The notes beneath the pieces were generated by a model. It did not search any database and had not been told where the DNA came from. It was given only the letters and a program-made list of their open reading frames with translations. Below are positions 7,211 to 63,495 of a stretch of 64,000 nucleotides of DNA, piece by piece (the first letter of the stretch is position 1; each line of letters starts with the position of its first letter). The DNA is from a virus (lineage: Duplodnaviria > Caudoviricetes): IMG/VR virus record IMGVR_UViG_3300021185_003947. One strand, 5' to 3'. Made by a program: the position numbers and the translations under genes.

Positions 7211-7485
7211 TCTGTATCATGACGAGTTGTTTCGTGTAGTGTCTCGCCATAGTGTGTTTTAGCATATTTAGATGCATCAGTATAATGATTAACATTATCT
7301 TGACCACCAGTAAAATCAGTTAGTTTTTTATCTTCAGCTGTACGCTTTTTACGAGCAACGATACGAACTTTTGCAGTATTTTTACGAATTGTTGCCAACC
7401 GCTCTTTGCGAGCCTTTTCGTTTTTTTGCTTTTCAGCAATTGCTTTAATTATTGCCAGCCGATCATCTAGGTTTTTAGCAATCAT
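7195..7485 (-). CDS. Hypothetical basic protein
   Basis: AGGAG RBS, early promoter upstream. Confidence 0.7.
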   Translation of the reverse strand: MIAKNLDDRLAIIKAIAEKQKNEKARKERLATIRKNTAKVRIVARKKRTAEDKKLTDFTGGQDNVNHYTDASKYAKTHYGETLHETTRHDTDWGDY

Positions 7486-54278: not shown

Positions 54279-54815
54279 TTATTCTTTTTCTTTTTCCGGC
54301 TTTTGGAACATCAACGCATGGGCATGTTCTTTTGCGTTGATATCCATATCATAAGAATAAGATGATTTTGTTACTTTATATTTGTGACCCTTTTGGCTTT
54401 TAAGCGGTAGTTGGATAATTTTTACAAACGGCGATGGGTGAGGATGCGTGCGATCCAAATGAATTTTTCCACCTTTATAATGAATTTTAATCGAACCTCT
54501 GTTATAATGTGGTTTTTTTGTGGTTCCAACATTTCTATCATCGGCGTGATGAATATAAGATACATAGCCTGAATGAGTGGCCTTTAAATTTTCAGGCTTG
54601 GGCCATTTACTGCTTGAACGAACTATTGCATTAGCAAGATGCCTATGATCATCCTTTTCATTCTTCGCATCGGGGATATGTGGCGATGAATACCGGTACC
54701 GATTTCCCTCGGCCCACTTATCAGCTTCTTGCTCATCTTTTTTGCCTTCTCTTATATCTTGCAAAAGCGACGCATAAGTTTCTATAATTTTTTCATTATC
54801 GTCGTTTGCAAACAT
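54279..54815 (-). CDS. MFAND-leader protein 1 (probable internal head protein)
   Basis: Leader MFANDDNEKIIETYASLLQDIREGK. Confidence 0.7.
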   Translation of the reverse strand: MFANDDNEKIIETYASLLQDIREGKKDEQEADKWAEGNRYRYSSPHIPDAKNEKDDHRHLANAIVRSSSKWPKPENLKATHSGYVSYIHHADDRNVGTTKKPHYNRGSIKIHYKGGKIHLDRTHPHPSPFVKIIQLPLKSQKGHKYKVTKSSYSYDMDINAKEHAHALMFQKPEKEKE

Positions 54816-57139
54816 TAGATTTCTCCTCTAATGTATTTAGCATACTTATCCATATAGCTTTCTGTTTTTACGGCTGGACCACCATATGGTGTGGGATCCG
54901 GCATAATTTTTTGATCACCTTTTGATGTAGGAGTATTAGGTGTTTTGGCCGCCGCCTTTGGAGCATTTTTAATAGCTTCAGCTGTCTTTTTAGCCGCAAC
55001 GTTACCATCAAACTCTGGTAGAACATCCGGATGAATAGTATGCATATCAACAAATTCTTTTTCAGTCATTGTATTAGGACCAGCCTTATCAGTCCAACGA
55101 TTTGCTGCCTGTTCATCGTTAGCTTGAGCTGCAGTTACCGGTGTTGAGTGATGAATTGCAGTTGGCTTAGCGGCTTCTTGAACAGACTTTGCTTTCTTTC
55201 TGTTCTCGCTGTTGCGGATCTTCTGGATCTCAGCACGGGCTGCTTTTTTGGAATTCTTATCGTCTCCATCATATGGATATTTCATACCGCGCTTTTCATA
55301 TTCGGAGGCGAAGCGAGACCTCTGTAGACTTTTCCTATCTGTTGGAATAAATACTTTTTTTCCAGCGACTTCTTGCACAGATTCACCGGCATAATGAGAT
55401 GCATTATTTGCACTATTAGATAGTTTTCCTGCATCCCTTAGTTTTTTTTCTTTCTTTGGGTCCATAGTTTTTACACGCATTGGCTCAGCTGGTCCACTTC
55501 CTTGCCAGTTTCCACTGGTCATACGATCCATTGGGTTATTAATTTTGTCCGCAGATTCATCAACTTCAACTGCTTCATTACCGGGAAATTTTACAACATT
55601 AGTACCGGGAATAGGTTTTTTTAGATCTTTTATCATTGCGGCGATATTTTTATCAGGTTTTTTTCCAGAATTATGATCATCAATTCTTTTCTGAGCATTT
55701 TTATATTTGCCTTTAGGACCAAGTTTTAATTGTCTGTTAATGGCTGCGTGACCTCTATCCATATAACTTACATAGTATGACCCGGACCCGTCATTCCACG
55801 GTACGCGATCTTCTTGTATATCAACCCGAATATCTTCAACCATATTACTAACACGATCCATAACAGATTCTTTTTGTGGACTATTAGCATGGCCTTGTGT
55901 CCGTAAATGTTCAAGATCATCTGTTGTAATTTTATGCCTTGGCGGAGTTTGTTTTGCTATTTTCTTTTGGCCAGGTGAAAGTTTAATATTAGCATCAACC
56001 CTCGCTTTTATGCGAGCTCGGTCTTTTGGTGATACCATACTACCATAGCCTTCATCAACCTCAACAGATTCCCAAGGAGCTTTAGCTACAGACACTTTAT
56101 CTTTTGATTTAGCCATTCTTGCAGCTTTATCGAAATCACGTTGATTTTGTTTTGTACCAGGTCTAACAGGTGCAGTATCTGCTCCTTTTGCTGGAATTGA
56201 CCTTTGATTATTTGCCATATTTCTATCATTATCTCCAGCTTTTGGTTGTTTACGTGAAGCATTTACTGTACCACACGATGCTTCTGCAACCATTGCTTCA
56301 GCTTGATCTAATGTATAGCCCTGATCGATAAGTGCTAATACATCGTCTACATTTACTGATTCGTTATAAGATGCATGCAATTTACCATCTCCTTCTTTTT
56401 TTGATAGGCTTACTCGATCACCGCCATATAATTCGCTTGCAGCGCCTTGGCCTAAATGATCAATTGCTAAACTATGAATTTTTTCTCTAGGTTCAGTGTC
56501 CAGTTCATCAGCGTGATCTCTGGCTTGATCCCAGTTACCGGCTTTAACATGTTTTGCATGATCTGCGAAATCTTTATGATCCATATGATCTTTGCCGATT
56601 TCTTTACAATAATCCATAAGACCTTTATGGAAGGCGGCTTGACGTGCAGCACCTTCTTGTAAATCTGTTGATTCATCAATTTCTTCTGGTTTATCGTGAG
56701 TGTATCCCATCTTTTTCATACGCAAATGATCTTCTTCTTTTTCGGCCTTATAACCTTTACCAGTTTTCGGATCATACATCATATGTGGCTCAAACTTATC
56801 TTCTTTATCTTCACTAACCTTTGTACCTTCTTGATCATTTTTATCATCACCAGTATAAGCTTTAAACTTCTCCTGATCATCACCGTCATCTTTTTTATTA
56901 ATAGCTTTTTTCACAGCTTTTCTTTTGTTATGAAGATATTCATCAGAGCTATCTTCATCACCATCATTATCGATGTCTTTATCATCGCGATCTTCGTGAT
57001 CACCTTCTAATTCTTCAGGGTCTACTTTATCTAAAGTCTTAGCATGATTCTTCTTTGCTTCAGTATTTTTTTTCTCGACCATCTCAAGATATGCCAAGCC
57101 TATGCTATTTAAATCTTTCGTTTCCATTTTTGTCTCCAT
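54815..57139 (-). CDS. Large modular probable internal head (poly)protein
   Basis: 774 aa, charged, punctuated by xES/xEA sites; late promoter upstream. Confidence 0.7.
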   Translation of the reverse strand: METKMETKDLNSIGLAYLEMVEKKNTEAKKNHAKTLDKVDPEELEGDHEDRDDKDIDNDGDEDSSDEYLHNKRKAVKKAINKKDDGDDQEKFKAYTGDDKNDQEGTKVSEDKEDKFEPHMMYDPKTGKGYKAEKEEDHLRMKKMGYTHDKPEEIDESTDLQEGAARQAAFHKGLMDYCKEIGKDHMDHKDFADHAKHVKAGNWDQARDHADELDTEPREKIHSLAIDHLGQGAASELYGGDRVSLSKKEGDGKLHASYNESVNVDDVLALIDQGYTLDQAEAMVAEASCGTVNASRKQPKAGDNDRNMANNQRSIPAKGADTAPVRPGTKQNQRDFDKAARMAKSKDKVSVAKAPWESVEVDEGYGSMVSPKDRARIKARVDANIKLSPGQKKIAKQTPPRHKITTDDLEHLRTQGHANSPQKESVMDRVSNMVEDIRVDIQEDRVPWNDGSGSYYVSYMDRGHAAINRQLKLGPKGKYKNAQKRIDDHNSGKKPDKNIAAMIKDLKKPIPGTNVVKFPGNEAVEVDESADKINNPMDRMTSGNWQGSGPAEPMRVKTMDPKKEKKLRDAGKLSNSANNASHYAGESVQEVAGKKVFIPTDRKSLQRSRFASEYEKRGMKYPYDGDDKNSKKAARAEIQKIRNSENRKKAKSVQEAAKPTAIHHSTPVTAAQANDEQAANRWTDKAGPNTMTEKEFVDMHTIHPDVLPEFDGNVAAKKTAEAIKNAPKAAAKTPNTPTSKGDQKIMPDPTPYGGPAVKTESYMDKYAKYIRGEI

Positions 57140-57165
57140 TTATACAAGCTTGGATATTATAGTTC

Positions 57166-57173
57166 TATTTATA
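57166..57173 (-). promoter_or_regulatory. Late promoter
   Basis: TATAAATA, intergenic, 26 nt before ATG. Confidence 0.7.
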
Positions 57174-57190
57174 TAATTTTTTTATTGAAT

Positions 57191-57478
57191 TTACATCATT
57201 CCAAAATGAGCAATTGCAGATCCAATAGCCGCAACAATCATAGCCCAAAATAACTTATTAATCACGTGAACGGTATTCGCGTTTTCATTTACTTTTCTTT
57301 CAATACAATCAAGCTTCTCCGAAAATTTATTCATTCTATTCCAAGAGTCATCTCTATACTTATTATAAGCATCCATTTTTTCTTCGAATCTAGCTATATT
57401 TACTAGAGCGTCTGTTAGTTTATCGATTTTTTCTTCGATTCTATCCAACCGTTTTTCCGATCTATCGTCTGTGACCAT
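57191..57478 (-). CDS. XhlA/holin-like coiled-coil protein with C-terminal TM
   Basis: RLDRIEEKIDKL...LFWAMIVAAIGSAIAHF. Confidence 0.65.
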   Translation of the reverse strand: MVTDDRSEKRLDRIEEKIDKLTDALVNIARFEEKMDAYNKYRDDSWNRMNKFSEKLDCIERKVNENANTVHVINKLFWAMIVAAIGSAIAHFGMM

Positions 57479-57505
57479 ATGGGTATTCCAGTTCTATACT
57501 ACTAA

Positions 57506-57793
57506 TTAACATTTCCAACGTCTTAACGACATTGCTTTTCTCGTTGGCCTACCCTTTTCGTCTTTCATGGGGCCTTTCATACCGCTCATACGAGCACAAA
57601 ATGATTTTCGTCTTTTTGCATCTTTACTACCAGCTTTTACTTTACCAGTCACAGCGGTTTGTAAATTACCTCCACTTTTTCTATTAGCAGCATCAACTCC
57701 TTTTTGAGTCATACCAGCGCCTTTATCAGTTGCTCTAAAATGTCCTTTGGAATCTGCCCCACGTTCAGAAATATATTGTTTAAAAGTATCCAT
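57506..57793 (-). CDS. DUF6321-like basic protein
   Basis: RRKSFCARMSGMK...RWKC; MDTFKQYISE N-terminus. Confidence 0.75.
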   Translation of the reverse strand: MDTFKQYISERGADSKGHFRATDKGAGMTQKGVDAANRKSGGNLQTAVTGKVKAGSKDAKRRKSFCARMSGMKGPMKDEKGRPTRKAMSLRRWKC

Positions 57794-57795
57794 TG

Positions 57796-58236
57796 TTATC
57801 CTCCAAACTCATGGCCAGCAACTCTTCTCATTTGCTTATTAAATTGTGCCTGTGAAGGCTTTTCGTTATATAGTTTAATAGAAATTTCAGGTCTTTCCTT
57901 ACCTTTAATTCTCCAGTTATGGCCTTTTTCTTTATGTTCAGGATTAGTTGTTTTTACAACACGTCTTTTATAACCGGCTTCCCAAGTTTCAGATTTTTTT
58001 TCATTAACTGATTCTGTTTTTATTTCATTCTTCATATAGTCACGAGCTGTATCAATATAATCGGTGGCTTTTGTAATTTTTGATTGAACCCATTCAGGCA
58101 TATTATCGTTATCACTTAACATATCATGCAACTCTTGAGCAGCATCAATCATGGTCTTAAGTTGACCTTTAGACATGCCACCTTCATTGTTATATTCATT
58201 TTCTTTATTTTCTAATAGCTCTCTAAATGTTTTCAT
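57796..58236 (-). CDS. Probable internal head protein
   Basis: MKTFRELLE; EGGMSKGQL...PEWVQSKITKA.DYI. Confidence 0.7.
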   Translation of the reverse strand: MKTFRELLENKENEYNNEGGMSKGQLKTMIDAAQELHDMLSDNDNMPEWVQSKITKATDYIDTARDYMKNEIKTESVNEKKSETWEAGYKRRVVKTTNPEHKEKGHNWRIKGKERPEISIKLYNEKPSQAQFNKQMRRVAGHEFGG

Positions 58237-58952
58237 TTTATTTGCCTATTTGCTTTAATGTTTTCCATTACTTCTATATTATCTTTTGAAATAACATCGT
58301 ATATTATCCAGTTAATTGGATCAGGATCAAATCTATGTTCATCAACGTAAAGTTTAGAATTACCAGGATCTACTTTTAATAATGTCCATGTCGGCTCTTT
58401 AAAATGCGTAAATCCTCGAACTCTGGCTAAACGCTTTGGTTTTTCAGTAAGGAACGTTGCAACATATGCAACCTTTGAACCACTAATTACCCAATCTCCT
58501 GAAGAAGGTTTTAATCCATTTTTTAATATACTATCAACATTTGCGGTCTTTGTCCAGTGATAAAGTGCATCTGGTTTTCCAACTGCTACTCTATTAGCAA
58601 AATATATAACAAGAGCAGTTTTACCTTCTCGATAAGTATCTCCAACATTATAGCTAATTAAGCGAGGATGTTTAAAAGCACCCTTCTCAATATCAGCTAA
58701 TAATTTATCAACTGAAGGATGATTTTTTTCTGGAATTGCTTCCCGTTGAGTTTTTCTAGCTATAGGAATTTTAACATAACTATCAGTCGACTGCACCTTG
58801 CCACCATTTGGACCAAAATCTATTCCATAATTAGCCACACCAGTATCATCAGGAATATTATATTTTTTAAGGTAATTCATAACTTTTTGCTCAGGCTTAA
58901 CATTAAGTTTGCCGTGTTTTTCTTCAGTTATGAATTTTCTAAATGGTTTCAT
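58233..58952 (-). CDS. Probable internal head protein with C-terminal Tpt1/DarT-like ART domain
   Basis: Start set at MKPFRKFITEE; LYHWT..NVDSILKNGLKP...TFLT. Confidence 0.6.
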   Translation of the reverse strand: MKPFRKFITEEKHGKLNVKPEQKVMNYLKKYNIPDDTGVANYGIDFGPNGGKVQSTDSYVKIPIARKTQREAIPEKNHPSVDKLLADIEKGAFKHPRLISYNVGDTYREGKTALVIYFANRVAVGKPDALYHWTKTANVDSILKNGLKPSSGDWVISGSKVAYVATFLTEKPKRLARVRGFTHFKEPTWTLLKVDPGNSKLYVDEHRFDPDPINWIIYDVISKDNIEVMENIKANRQIK

Positions 58953-58956
58953 TTGT

Positions 58957-59376
58957 TTATCTTTTCTTAAACAAAGGCTTTGTTTTGACGGAACCCTTTT
59001 GTGCAGGTCTTGATAACCGACCGATGGCTTTTTTTGCTCTAGCGGCCTTATCCATATTGTCATGATAATAATCTGACTGCATTTGCCTAATCTCATCAGG
59101 TGTTTTTCCGCTGGTGTCTATTCCTGAATTATCGAAATTTGCAAGGTCTGATTTTCTAAATGCTGTGTCCAGCTTTTTTCTCATCAAGAATCCACCAAGG
59201 CCTTTAAATGGGCCTTCTGATAACTGATTTAAATCACTCTCAGTTAAATCAAATAAAATATCATCTAATTCTTCTGAAAGTGATTTCTCATTTGTAGATT
59301 CTTTACCTTCTCTTATGTCTTGCAAAAGAGCAGCATATGTTTTAATGTTTTTTTCATTGTTGTCGTTTGCAAACAT
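58957..59376 (-). CDS. MFAND-leader protein 2
   Basis: Leader MFANDNNEKNIKTYAALLQDIREGK. Confidence 0.7.
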   Translation of the reverse strand: MFANDNNEKNIKTYAALLQDIREGKESTNEKSLSEELDDILFDLTESDLNQLSEGPFKGLGGFLMRKKLDTAFRKSDLANFDNSGIDTSGKTPDEIRQMQSDYYHDNMDKAARAKKAIGRLSRPAQKGSVKTKPLFKKR

Positions 59377-59387
59377 TTTAATTTTCC

Positions 59388-59972
59388 TTATTTTTTAACT
59401 GCTGGAATTTTAGTTACCATTTTAGTCGTAATTGGATGATCATTTAAGACTTCATCACCATCTTGAACGGTCATGCTAGAGTAATGGTCAAAATCTTCAT
59501 GAGATTCACGATTTTTGGTTGGCGTGTAGCGCATGTGATGATGATTCGATACATGTGCAGCGCCACGGTGATCGTTCGCAATGCGGTCATGTTCATCTGC
59601 CGCATCGTGATTTCCAGCAATGGAGTGAAGAGTTGCATGCGCTTGATGTATGTCAGCCAGTTTATTATGATGGTGCTCTAATTGTGCTAATTCAGTACTA
59701 CTTTTACGAAGATGGCTTCCGTCCGGGCGGCTCGACCGATGATCCGGATCGTAACGGTCGAGTATAGTATGAATCACTTTGGAGTGTTGATGAGCCTGTG
59801 CGTGCACAGAATTCTTCGGCTTCCCGAAAACGCTTTCGGCCGCTCTGTCACTCTTCGACAGTACAACAGGTATTGAAGTAGCTTCATCGATACCTTCTTT
59901 ACCTTCTCTTATGTTTTGTAAAAGATTGGCATATGTTTTAATGTTTTTTTCATTGTTGTCGTTTGCAAACAT
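59388..59972 (-). CDS. MFAND-leader protein 3, His-rich
   Basis: Leader MFANDNNEKNIKTYANLLQNIREGK. Confidence 0.7.
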   Translation of the reverse strand: MFANDNNEKNIKTYANLLQNIREGKEGIDEATSIPVVLSKSDRAAESVFGKPKNSVHAQAHQHSKVIHTILDRYDPDHRSSRPDGSHLRKSSTELAQLEHHHNKLADIHQAHATLHSIAGNHDAADEHDRIANDHRGAAHVSNHHHMRYTPTKNRESHEDFDHYSSMTVQDGDEVLNDHPITTKMVTKIPAVKK

Positions 59973-59998
59973 TTTAATTTTCCTTATGTTTTATTGTT

Positions 59999-61801
59999 TT
60001 ATTTTTTGACTTTTGCGGCTAAATCTTTATCGGCTTTACCCCAAGTACCTGAAGACTTAGTAATAAACGAATTTACACGAGCCATGCCCCACTGTTCTGG
60101 AGTTGTACCTGGTCTATGACCAGTTTTCCAAGCAGCCATACCACGGTTATATACTTGCTTTAAAACACCAAGTGGCATTCCAGACTTTTCAGCTTTATTT
60201 TCTAAACCCTTTTTATTTTCATTTATATTGTATGATTCTTTTTGAGCACTACGAATAGCTTCAGGTGTAGGTGCACCTTTCTCACCTTTCTTTCTCATTC
60301 TCTCGCCGCGCTTCCTCTTAGCATGAATATTTGCCCACAATCCAGCTTCATTTGGGCCCATGCCCATTGCTGCAGCTTTCTTAGTATGAATAGATGGTTC
60401 GGTTTCTGCTGTATCATCTCCAGGAGCTGGCTTATAAGCAGAGTTATCATCATCTGCTTTTTTGCCATGCTTTTTAAAATGTGCTTTACGATCATCAGCA
60501 GTACTTTTTGAAAGACCAGCATAATATGCTTTAGATTCATTCGTATAATATTCTTTTAATTTGTTAATAACATCTGCGGTTGCTTCACCTACATCAATAG
60601 GATCATGTTTATGTCTATTTCTTACACTATTATAATAATCCATTGCTTCTTTTCGTTCAGGCGAGCCTTGAGGGTGCATCATAGCTTTTTGATATGCAGC
60701 TGTTACATCACCTGCAGTTACTTCATCTATTGATGATTGTAATACTTTAGCGTTCTTTTTACGAAATGTTGCTAAATCTTTTTCAGAGTCATGTCTAGCC
60801 TTTGAAGCTTTAGCTGCATCTTCTTCTCTATCACGTTGTGTTCGACCGCTTGCTTTATCCATTTCACCAGAAATTCTAGATCTTGTTACAGATGATTCTT
60901 TTTTAAATCTAGATGGAGGTGCCGGTACGTCAACAACATAAAATTTACCATCTTTATGTTTGTGAACATATGATTTATGCGAAGCTTTACCAGATCCAAC
61001 TAATTGATCATTATGAAGCGTGGCCCCGCGGCGATCATTAAACCCTTTACTAACAACTTTCATTTTGTCTATTTGAGCTTCATTCATTTCTTCTTCCTCT
61101 TTGCCTTGGGACCGCAGCCGTAATCTTTTTTTAACTTCTTGAGGTGTAACTCTTTTAATATCGCCAACTGCTTTTGATGGATTGCGAAGAAGGCCAACTA
61201 AATCTTTTCTTAATTCTTCTCTATTTGCAGAATTAACATACATCGTAGGTAACCCTTCAATCTTTACTTTAAAATACATATCCTCATTTAGACCAACCAT
61301 ACATGATTCACTAATTATTTCTACTGTTGACATATCATACTCCGTTGACGCTTTTTGTAAGTTAGCTTTTACTCTATCATGGTGATACTTTGCTGAATTA
61401 GCAGCAGTTTGATAAGCGGTGGCAGTTCTAGCTGCAGATCGTCTTATTAAAGCATCATTTCTTCGTACAGCAGATCGAGTAGCTACTCCAGCAATTTTTG
61501 TTTGTCTATTTTTCATAGCGTTTGCTCTACGTATAGCGCCACGGGCATTTTGTGCAGCTATTTTTACTCTATTTTCTCCATGTTTTTCATCTCGCTCAGT
61601 TTGCCGAGTAGCTTTAGCTTCTTTCTCTGCTGCCCGTCTTTTATTTAGCTCATTTTGTCTTTTTTCTCGAGTAGCAGCTTGTTGTTCTTTTTTTGCCTCT
61701 CGCTCTTTCTTTTTTCGTTCTCTTTCTGCAGCCTTTTCAGCCGGAGTCATAGGTGTAGCAGGTTGACCAAAACCAAGTATTTCTGATAAAGTTTTAGTCA
61801 T
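59999..61801 (-). CDS. Modular probable internal head protein with C-terminal DUF5824-like domain
   Basis: KAEKSGMPLGVLKQVYNRGMAAWKTGHRPG.TPEQWGMARVNSF; GLWANIHAKRKRG. Confidence 0.75.
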   Translation of the reverse strand: MTKTLSEILGFGQPATPMTPAEKAAERERKKKEREAKKEQQAATREKRQNELNKRRAAEKEAKATRQTERDEKHGENRVKIAAQNARGAIRRANAMKNRQTKIAGVATRSAVRRNDALIRRSAARTATAYQTAANSAKYHHDRVKANLQKASTEYDMSTVEIISESCMVGLNEDMYFKVKIEGLPTMYVNSANREELRKDLVGLLRNPSKAVGDIKRVTPQEVKKRLRLRSQGKEEEEMNEAQIDKMKVVSKGFNDRRGATLHNDQLVGSGKASHKSYVHKHKDGKFYVVDVPAPPSRFKKESSVTRSRISGEMDKASGRTQRDREEDAAKASKARHDSEKDLATFRKKNAKVLQSSIDEVTAGDVTAAYQKAMMHPQGSPERKEAMDYYNSVRNRHKHDPIDVGEATADVINKLKEYYTNESKAYYAGLSKSTADDRKAHFKKHGKKADDDNSAYKPAPGDDTAETEPSIHTKKAAAMGMGPNEAGLWANIHAKRKRGERMRKKGEKGAPTPEAIRSAQKESYNINENKKGLENKAEKSGMPLGVLKQVYNRGMAAWKTGHRPGTTPEQWGMARVNSFITKSSGTWGKADKDLAAKVKK

Positions 61802-63495
61802 TTTTTTGGACCCTTTAACAATACTTTAGCTGACTTTCTAGCACCTTTTATTTTAGTGATTAAATCATCTGGTTTTGGCTTATATGTTGTATCAGATACT
61901 TTAGCATTACTATGATCTGCCTTACTCATTCCTGGTCCAAAATTATCTTGACTTGGTAACAAACCACGTTTTACTGCACCCTCACCCATACCACCGGCGT
62001 CTGATACACCACTACCTGGATGTTTTCTTGTTTTAGTTTTAGACTTTGGAGTTGATTTAACGTCTGGCATAACTTGACCCGGAGTACTATCTACCCATTT
62101 TTTAGTAGTTTCTTTAGTTCCCCATCCGGTCTTATTATAAGCATCTAGTTCAGCATCTTCGCCTATTGTCTTCATGTCACGAGGAATTGGTTCAGCAAAT
62201 ACTGGTCTATTTCTCTTACGTTTTGCTTTAATTTTATCCACGGTCTTACCAATTTTTTTCTGTATTGCTCGAGAAGCTGCATTCGAAGCAACAGTTAATC
62301 CAGCCATTCCAGTTGCAATTCCAGCGCCTTGCATCATTTGCGCTGAAGTAACAACATCATGTGCTAACTGAGTAGGATCTTCGTTAACTGACTCAATAGA
62401 TTCAGTAACTTTTTTGCCTTTGGAATCATATTTACCCAGTTCCATGACCATCGCTTTCGCATGCCATTGTGGGCTATATGTCTCATGCCAATCCCAATCA
62501 CGTGAACGTTTATTCCATTCCATAACTTTCCATTCGCCTTTATGGCGCTCATTTTGATCGAGTTGTTTCTCAATTTGGAATCGACGGCCAGTAGAGAATG
62601 TAATTTCTTTTTCTCCATTAGGACCAGATTTTTTCCACTTTGGCCCAGCAACTTTTTTAACTGATTCGTCAAGTGATTCAACTGCTTCAATCCATTTTCT
62701 TACAATAGATCCGTCTTCCTTTTCAAGAATCAAATAATTAGGTCCACGAAATGTGACTTCTGCTAATTCATCGGTATCTTTAATGCGTAAACGTTCACCA
62801 AGATTATAAATCTCGCCTTGAATATATTTTTCTCGTAGATCGCCTACAGATTCTAATTGCACATGCTTATAGAATTCGGTTTCTTCTTTTAGACCCATAC
62901 CAGATCTTACGCCATTAAATAAGTCCTTTGAATCTTTATTACTAAAATTCTTTGGAAGGCCTTTTGTAAACTGATTAAAATCATTATCACTGGCAGCTGC
63001 TCTCATTTTAGATGCGGACATACCATCTACACCTTCTGAGTCAGGGTCTCTTTCACCAGCCGATATTACATCAATTGTTCTAAAGTTATAGAAACCATAC
63101 CGTTGTCCTGTTTTACCATTATACTTTGTTAATAAAGATTTGAACTCAGTGATTCTATCTGATCCAACTACCATTACTACATTTACAAATCCTTCATTAT
63201 AAATGGCATTAGCTGCATCAAATACTGTTTTAACATCTTTGTTTAACATAATATAACGAGCATGCTTAGGCATCATTTTCCTAGCATATTTAACTTTATC
63301 ATTATATAGTAATGGATTTTTCTTTTTATCATTTGTTTGAGAAAGATAAATTCGATATGGATTATTACCTGACTTAGAAGAAAGCACCTCTAGCAGTTTT
63401 TCATGACCAATAGTTGGAGGATTCATTCTACCAAATGTAAAATAAAGTGTCTTTGCCTCTTCAACAATATACTGCTTAAAAGAATTAATCATCAT
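61798..63495 (-). CDS. T4-like cytidylyltransferase-family protein with appended modules
   Basis: TFGRMNPPTIGHEKL, VVGSDR, SAGERDPD, MSASKMR. Confidence 0.88.
   Translation of the reverse strand: MMINSFKQYIVEEAKTLYFTFGRMNPPTIGHEKLLEVLSSKSGNNPYRIYLSQTNDKKKNPLLYNDKVKYARKMMPKHARYIMLNKDVKTVFDAANAIYNEGFVNVVMVVGSDRITEFKSLLTKYNGKTGQRYGFYNFRTIDVISAGERDPDSEGVDGMSASKMRAAASDNDFNQFTKGLPKNFSNKDSKDLFNGVRSGMGLKEETEFYKHVQLESVGDLREKYIQGEIYNLGERLRIKDTDELAEVTFRGPNYLILEKEDGSIVRKWIEAVESLDESVKKVAGPKWKKSGPNGEKEITFSTGRRFQIEKQLDQNERHKGEWKVMEWNKRSRDWDWHETYSPQWHAKAMVMELGKYDSKGKKVTESIESVNEDPTQLAHDVVTSAQMMQGAGIATGMAGLTVASNAASRAIQKKIGKTVDKIKAKRKRNRPVFAEPIPRDMKTIGEDAELDAYNKTGWGTKETTKKWVDSTPGQVMPDVKSTPKSKTKTRKHPGSGVSDAGGMGEGAVKRGLLPSQDNFGPGMSKADHSNAKVSDTTYKPKPDDLITKIKGARKSAKVLLKGPKK

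Follow-up and report, generated by a model that had tools for sequence, protein, structure and literature searches.

Three genes with a common leader

Within a 64,000-nucleotide stretch of viral DNA (IMG/VR record IMGVR_UViG_3300021185_003947; the window, below), three genes on the minus strand begin with the same short N-terminal leader and continue into different cargo proteins. Here, we describe these genes and their relatives and suggest that the leader is probably a capsid-targeting propeptide of the bacteriophage T4 type. The window is AT-rich (~34% G+C) and also encodes a ribonucleotide reductase, a baseplate/fibre protein, an exonuclease and a nucleotidyltransferase; the nearest kin of the nucleotidyltransferase gene are in phage C48C1, Methylophilales phage Melnitz and T4-like cyanophages, all Kyanoviridae. 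The source is an uncultured marine T4-like phage. The three genes, referred to by their cargos A, B and C, are arranged as follows.

54279-54815, minus strand: gene A, leader and cargo A; 178 amino acids (aa), basic, 9% His, TAATG-coupled to the gene for a 774-aa protein
54747-54815, minus strand: leader coding segment of gene A
58957-59376, minus strand: gene B, leader and cargo B; 139 aa, with the leader followed by an acidic linker and then a basic core
59308-59376, minus strand: leader coding segment of gene B
59388-59972, minus strand: gene C, leader and cargo C; 194 aa, with the leader (residues 1-23), a disordered linker and a His-rich four-helix bundle
59904-59972, minus strand: leader coding segment of gene C (codons 1-23, I-R-E at the end)

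The original prediction, made from the DNA of the window, held that the genes starting at 54815, 59376 and 59972 share the leader at both the protein and the DNA level, and this is confirmed for all three open reading frames. The shared start reads MFAND[DN]NEK[NI]I[KE]TYAxLLQ[DN]IREGK with 20 of 25 residues invariant. At the DNA level, the three genes have a mean column identity of 83% over the leader and the sequence upstream of it. The ATG codons of genes B (59376) and C (59972) are both preceded by TAAGGAAAATTAAA, so that the common ribosome-binding region noted earlier is also correct. The start of gene A overlaps the stop codon of the upstream 774-aa gene (TAATG), an arrangement of translational coupling. 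Past residue 25, cargos A, B and C have no BLASTP similarity to one another (E > 0.8). The complete divergence said to follow IREGK therefore stands, but its boundary has to be moved from K25 to E23 or G24. The contrast in base composition that had been reported is exact, with 36 of 60 nucleotides being G or C at 59701-59760 versus 13 of 60 at 59941-60000.

The leader occurs in a narrow lineage and heads at least eight cargo families

A degenerate-pattern scan of IMG/VR for the leader gave 7 loci. A leader profile of 30 columns, built from 12 leaders, was run against 1.84 billion representative proteins and gave 21 matches, 18 of them true, and all 18 begin at residue 1. Because the same peptide heads 18 independent cluster representatives, always at residue 1, the leader is not a chance match. 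After removal of the leader, the cargos of the profile matches and loci were compared by BLASTP and fell into 10 clusters, at least 8 of which are robust (A, B, C, D, F, E (P0012), G (P0014) and the P0006 type). Thus, the cargo diversity listed by the profile search agrees with the earlier claim in that more than one kind of domain follows the leader.

The nearest cultured relatives, C48C1 and Melnitz, lack the leader in their complete genomes, and it is therefore specific to a narrow lineage. Searches against cultured phages, by megablast with the locus and by tblastn with cargo C, returned nothing real, and among the papers searched we found no link between a capsid targeting sequence (CTS) and cyanophages or pelagiphages.

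The peptide is under purifying selection up to a protease-type site

Residues I21, R22 and E23 are invariant in 12 of 12 aligned leaders, and IRE is kept in 16 of the 18 profile matches (P0016 and P0017 differ). Likeness among the leader proteins stops at E23 or G24, with residue 24 onward being variable; for instance, G24/K25 is replaced by S, A, D or N in P0009, P0012, P0014 and the gene at 7296 of locus L006. The specificity of the T4 prohead protease gp21 is L/I-X-E (PMC9026906). An I-x-E is located exactly at the boundary between leader and cargo, in agreement with the prediction that the leader ends at a gp21-type site.

Between cargo families, leader codons 2-23 have a nonsynonymous difference (pN) of 0.089 and a synonymous difference (pS) of 0.537, giving a ratio of 0.17. 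The DNA of the leader is on average 84% identical, compared with 59% for the sequence upstream and 31% for that downstream. The same peptide is found in two upstream contexts, i.e. behind its own ribosome-binding site or in the coupled TAATG arrangement. The leader peptide is under purifying selection. Because of the contrast between pS and pN and the two upstream contexts, this conservation acts on the amino acid sequence and not on a nucleotide element, nor does it reflect fresh gene conversion.

In AlphaFold2 models, residues 5-22 of the leader form a helix. Its core, K-T-Y-x-x-L-L...I-x-E, recalls the K-T-Y-Q-E-F-I-A-E of T4 and has the same aromatic-to-hydrophobic i/i+3 spacing. The resemblance between KTYAxLLQDIRE and KTYQEFIAE is brief, too short for any statistic, and search tools cannot align the two.

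A copy of the leader is in the head operon of sister contigs

The most divergent profile match, P0021, led to nine viral contigs. In contigs L019 and L023, and in the metagenome loci L027 and L028, a 155-aa His-rich protein with the start MFSNNNEKRLTTYASLLQNIRE/DKD (here and below, a slash follows the Glu of the tag or leader) is encoded between Portal_T4 and Peptidase_S77, T4_CASP and Gp23. This protein is a member of cargo family C. In L019, the genes beside the leader-bearing gene include Peptidase_S77 (E 7e-43) and T4_CASP (E 9e-66), and both genes recur in L027 and L028. We take the T4 gene order to be 20-67-68-21-22-23, in which case the 155-aa protein occupies the position of the T4 core genes 67 and 68. 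It differs from gp67 and gp68 in being His-rich, helical and a member of cargo family C, and not an acidic peptide precursor. The 155-aa protein (P0055), cargo C (P0031) and cargo A (P0049) each have a largest contig of 199,695 bp and, because this number is the same for all three, the simplest reading is that one sister genome carries them together.

In L019, the scaffold protein contains 19 [LI]xE sites; of the five in the capsid protein, four are within residues 1-58 and one is in the other ~390. Among ten representative cargos, all [LI]xE sites are within the first 55 residues with none beyond, where 4.0 are expected from shuffled sequences. A complex prediction for the L019 protease and residues 1-45 of the head-operon leader protein had a score of 0.01, which carries no weight either way.

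Two further proteins are encoded between the portal and protease genes in the same head operon, a 141-aa His-rich protein with the start MKTFTNFINEVNE/A (L019 10735-11160, plus strand) and a 70-aa protein with the start MIKFKELKANLHE/A (L019 9785-9997, plus strand). Both carry a short tag and are located beside the long-leader protein. We considered whether the same cargo follows both types of leader; however, a comparison of the 141-aa short-tag protein with cargo family C revealed no detectable kinship (hhalign probability 0.6%; BLASTP E 0.011 in a single comparison).

Cargos are exchanged at one slot

Gene A is flanked upstream by the large gene to which it is coupled.

54815-57139, minus strand: 774-aa multi-module protein, upstream of gene A

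Between this large multi-module gene and a DUF7207 gene is a slot that has the same leader with differing cargos across strains.

Window: cargo A
L006: cargo D
L004: cargo F, then cargo A
L030 and L031: cargo G
L032 and L033: cargo of the P0006 type

The idea of a plug-in leader on unrelated cargos is, thus, supported both by the number of cargo families and by cargo swaps at one fixed slot.

Modules also recur in other arrangements. The core of cargo B, which begins straight after L-S-E/G in cargo B itself, is found again in L003 (5236-5682), where the N-terminus before it is another one and ends in I-E-E/G. In P0043, cargo A is fused to other upstream sequence and only DIRE/GK of the leader is kept. 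From the two contexts of the cargo B core and the fusion point in P0043, we conclude that module joints coincide with protease-type sites. P0043 is an in-frame fusion of 230 aa on one 15-kb JGI contig and is either a natural polyprotein variant or an artefact of assembly or gene calling. An internal module of the 774-aa protein (residues ~162-239) exists elsewhere as the stand-alone leader-plus-cargo protein P0006, and the 774-aa protein looks, from its sequence, like a string of exchangeable modules. Its relatives range from 770 to 952 aa.

The cargo proteins

Cargo C could be modelled by AlphaFold2 (predicted template modelling score, pTM, 0.74), with residues 27-48 disordered and four helices at 55-178; the linker holds a second site, I-D-E. 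A Foldseek search of the PDB with this model returned generic helical bundles only (best E 0.47). Among 20 homologues of cargo C, 19 begin with the leader, and P0027 begins at MQDIRE. Within residues 87-158, histidines are kept at heptad spacing (H102, H109 and H116; H128 and H135) on the faces of the modelled bundle, a pattern that suggests metal binding. In cargo B, the linker has LxE sites at 33, 44 and 52, and the basic core begins with GPFKGLGG. Cargo A gave a low-confidence model of mixed alpha/beta structure (predicted local distance difference test, pLDDT, 47). Structure prediction of the cargos, as had been proposed, therefore succeeded for C without an informative PDB match and was poor for A. 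Cargos A, B and C have no match in Pfam or PHROGs, and cargo A has none in the protein atlas. No cargo matches a family or fold of known function, and the suggestion that the cargos are effectors or anti-defence proteins gained no support. The mature parts are mostly basic (isoelectric point (pI) 8-9.8).

The G+C content at third codon positions (GC3) is 0.28-0.35 in the cargos, 0.17-0.23 in most window genes and 0.31-0.33 in the capsid and protease genes of sister contig L019. The G+C contrast needs no foreign origin because cargo GC3 equals that of these capsid and protease genes, and we rejected foreign origin as the sole cause of the raised G+C of the cargos for the same reason; the codon usage of highly expressed late genes explains cargo GC3 as well as foreign origin does. 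Moreover, cargo family C has a paralogue within the head operon. On both counts, the proposal that the leader captures foreign domains is not upheld.

A model for the leader as a capsid-targeting propeptide

Based on these data, we consider it probable that MFANDxNEKxIxTYAxLLQxIRE is a long, lineage-specific T4-type capsid-targeting propeptide that is removed by a gp21-type protease, and the leader-bearing proteins would, as a consequence, be internal head proteins in the T4 sense. In this model, the leader forms an amphipathic helix that would dock the newly made protein onto the scaffolding core during prohead assembly. The gp21-type prohead protease (Peptidase_S77) would then cut after Ile-Arg-Glu and at the back-up L/I-x-E sites in the flexible linker, and the small mature protein, mostly basic or His-rich, would be freed and remain in the head beside the DNA, probably to exit with the DNA at infection. 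We propose that recombination exchanges the cargos behind the leader, given that address and cargo are separate. We infer docking, cleavage, capsid residence and ejection; injection of the cargos and an anti-defence role would follow by analogy only.

Several points weigh against this model. The protease and the head-operon copy of the leader are known from the sister contigs only. The P value of the motif-avoidance test in the ten cargos (P ~0.012) is only ~0.01 and belongs to a residue-55 cut-off that was picked after seeing the data. At the sequence level, the leader is without significant similarity to the T4 tag, and a lone [LI]xE at the boundary is expected by chance a few per cent of the time. 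Classical internal proteins are basic, whereas cargo C has a pI close to neutral (6.6) and cargo G is acidic. Within the window, no late-promoter motif of their own precedes genes B and C. Finally, the leader-bearing proteins are known here as genes alone, from which packaging and cleavage are deduced.

The closest known system is the CTS of the T4 internal proteins IPI, IPII and IPIII, which is removed by gp21 (Mullaney and Black 1996, as reviewed in PMC9026906 and PMC3012670). Both are short N-terminal propeptides on otherwise unrelated small proteins with L/I-x-E at the end; the lineage described here has a gp21-type protease and a gp22-type scaffold, the mature parts are mostly basic, and cargos are polymorphic among related phages. 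The T4 CTS can carry foreign proteins too and is, thus, a modular address in T4. By contrast, the leader begins with 11 additional residues (MFANDNNEKNI), its spacing ahead of I-x-E is longer by 3 residues, and it has no alignable similarity beyond K-T-Y...L...I-x-E; it is so far a feature read from DNA, and it shares its locus with genes bearing the short T4-type tag. The claim that the leader is distinct from the T4 MKTYQEF type accordingly holds for length, 23 residues being more than twice as long as that tag, and for the lack of an alignment, but not for the core, which recalls the T4 tag. The leader is also close in length to the propeptides of the T4 internal proteins, which have 10-19 residues (10 in IPII and IPIII, 19 in IPI; PMC9026906).

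In T2, T4 and T6, a polymorphic internal-protein locus encodes different basic proteins after CTS-like sequences (Repoila et al. 1994, cited in PMC9026906). Here as there, a fixed slot has a constant leader and a strain-dependent cargo; the differences are that the present lineage is marine and uncultured, that the slot is located behind a multi-module protein of 774-952 aa, and that the leader sequence is another one. In the phiKZ-like giant phages, propeptides are cut at S/A-x-E (PMC9026906) and, similarly to our model, many head and ejected proteins are cut behind a Glu and have redundant sites in the propeptide region; however, the motif differs, as does the phage group, and there is no single shared leader sequence. 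Most likely, therefore, the leader is an extension of a mechanism already known rather than a new one.

The principle of a capsid address has been known from T4 since the 1990s. New here are the longer leader, as a second such sequence, the copy of it within the head operon, and clear allelic swapping of cargos. If the model is true, the head cargo of an abundant lineage of ocean phages becomes predictable from sequence by listing the genes with either leader. It would also make a second case, independent of the first, of a modular capsid address and so help to define recognition by the prohead core, and the leader could be put to use as a packaging tag in phages that infect marine bacteria.

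Alternative explanations

The leader might target the prohead core with cargos that are assembly parts, namely accessory core or scaffold proteins which, like gp67 and gp68, assist in building or sizing the head and are later degraded or expelled, rather than being effectors delivered to the host. The most conserved leader protein has a 67/68-like position, with the portal gene on one side and the protease gene on the other; an enzymatic or anti-defence domain can be recognised in none of the cargos; and the T4 core proteins gp67 and gp68 are likewise processed by gp21 (PMC9026906). However, unlike the degraded scaffold with its 19 sites, the cargo bodies have no internal [LI]xE, suggesting that they survive maturation. 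Moreover, one cargo taking the place of another between strains, at a single slot, is what accessory, arms-race proteins typically show, unlike essential parts; as judged from the sequences, this replacement would mark these small proteins as candidates for arms-race functions. We regard cargos that are assembly parts as unlikely.

A shared N-terminus could also be a handle for a partner outside the head, such as a modifying enzyme in the style of ribosomally synthesised and post-translationally modified peptides or of radical S-adenosylmethionine enzymes, a chaperone, or a tail or baseplate part. In the window and in L003-L009, L012-L015 and L030-L033, no enzyme gene is a constant neighbour, the constant neighbours being DUF proteins, the 774-aa protein and a small membrane protein. 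Because the leader also lacks a Cys- or Ser-rich core, ends in a protease motif and has a copy that adjoins the protease gene, we find a partner of this kind very improbable.

Barely plausible is a conserved block that is a nucleotide-level element only, whether for translation initiation or regulation or as a stretch of homology at which cassettes recombine or genes are converted: genes B and C do share the ribosome-binding region besides the leader and recombination behind the leader clearly occurs, but synonymous sites are strongly diverged between paralogues (pS 0.54) with the amino acids kept (pN 0.09), the same peptide follows two different upstream contexts, and conservation halts at the codon boundary after E23.

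Neighbouring genes with T4-type tags

Interspersed among the leader genes of the window are others with N-termini that closely resemble the T4 tag MKTYQEFIAE. These genes and a promoter motif are as follows.

57166-57173, minus strand: TATAAATA (T4 late-promoter consensus); begins 33 nucleotides upstream of the start of the 774-aa gene
57506-57793, minus strand: 95-aa DUF6321 gene, N-terminus MDTFKQYISE/RG, mature part very basic (pI 11.3)
57796-58236, minus strand: 146-aa gene, N-terminus MKTFRELLE/NK, T4-type capsid-targeting-like
58233-58952, minus strand: 239-aa gene, N-terminus MKPFRKFITE/EK
61798-63495, minus strand: 565-aa nucleotidyltransferase (NMNAT/cytidylyltransferase-like), N-terminus MMINSFKQYIVE/EAK (begins MINSFKQYIVE)

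The 565-aa protein has a homologue in cyanophage S-SCSM1 (38% identity over 300 aa) that begins with MKSFLQFLKE and was found by mass spectrometry in purified virions (PMC9602691). NMNAT-like proteins were also detected in the virions of two other cyanophages, and S-SCSM1 ORFs (open reading frames) 92, 93 and 95 are annotated as encoding virion proteins (PMC9602691). These three ORFs are located between the NMNAT-like gene and the DUF7207 homologue, which is the interval that holds the leader genes in the window, and this synteny counts in favour of the capsid model.

Given the two types of N-terminus, we tentatively raise the possibility, itself doubtful, that the lineage uses the short T4-type tag (MKTF..[LI]xE) in parallel with the long MFAND-type helix, as two separate addresses for loading the capsid. 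The two addresses may dock on different core partners and in this way sort cargo by amount, head location or exit order. The long address would have arisen on the His-rich, possibly metal-binding, four-helix protein of the head operon and would then have spread to the exchangeable cargos of the hot-spot slot.

TATAAATA at 57166-57173 would, by its position, drive the 774-aa gene together with gene A. Only its placement is suggestive because the count of the motif across the whole window is not above chance.

The nucleotidyltransferase domain of the 565-aa protein begins directly after the 13-residue tag. The next gene (59999-61801, minus strand) encodes a 600-aa protein with DUF5824 at its end, and its match is to the C-terminal part of phrog_3041, the PHROG that the 565-aa protein matches too. 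Because both match phrog_3041, the 565-aa and 600-aa genes correspond to one longer protein in other phages. Among the papers searched, we found no mention of DUF6321. The 239-aa protein (58233-58952) contains an 'LYHWTKT...ILKNGL' stretch and has a weak lead in the protein atlas (score 0.88) to a viral cluster with PARP (PF00644) members; by analogy with Alt in T4, it could be a packaged ADP-ribosyltransferase-like enzyme. Lastly, the gene at 57191-57478 (minus strand) encodes a 95-aa coiled coil with a C-terminal membrane helix and weak PHROG matches to XhlA-type hemolysin and holin, and this protein is conserved in the middle of the cluster of putative internal proteins in all related loci.

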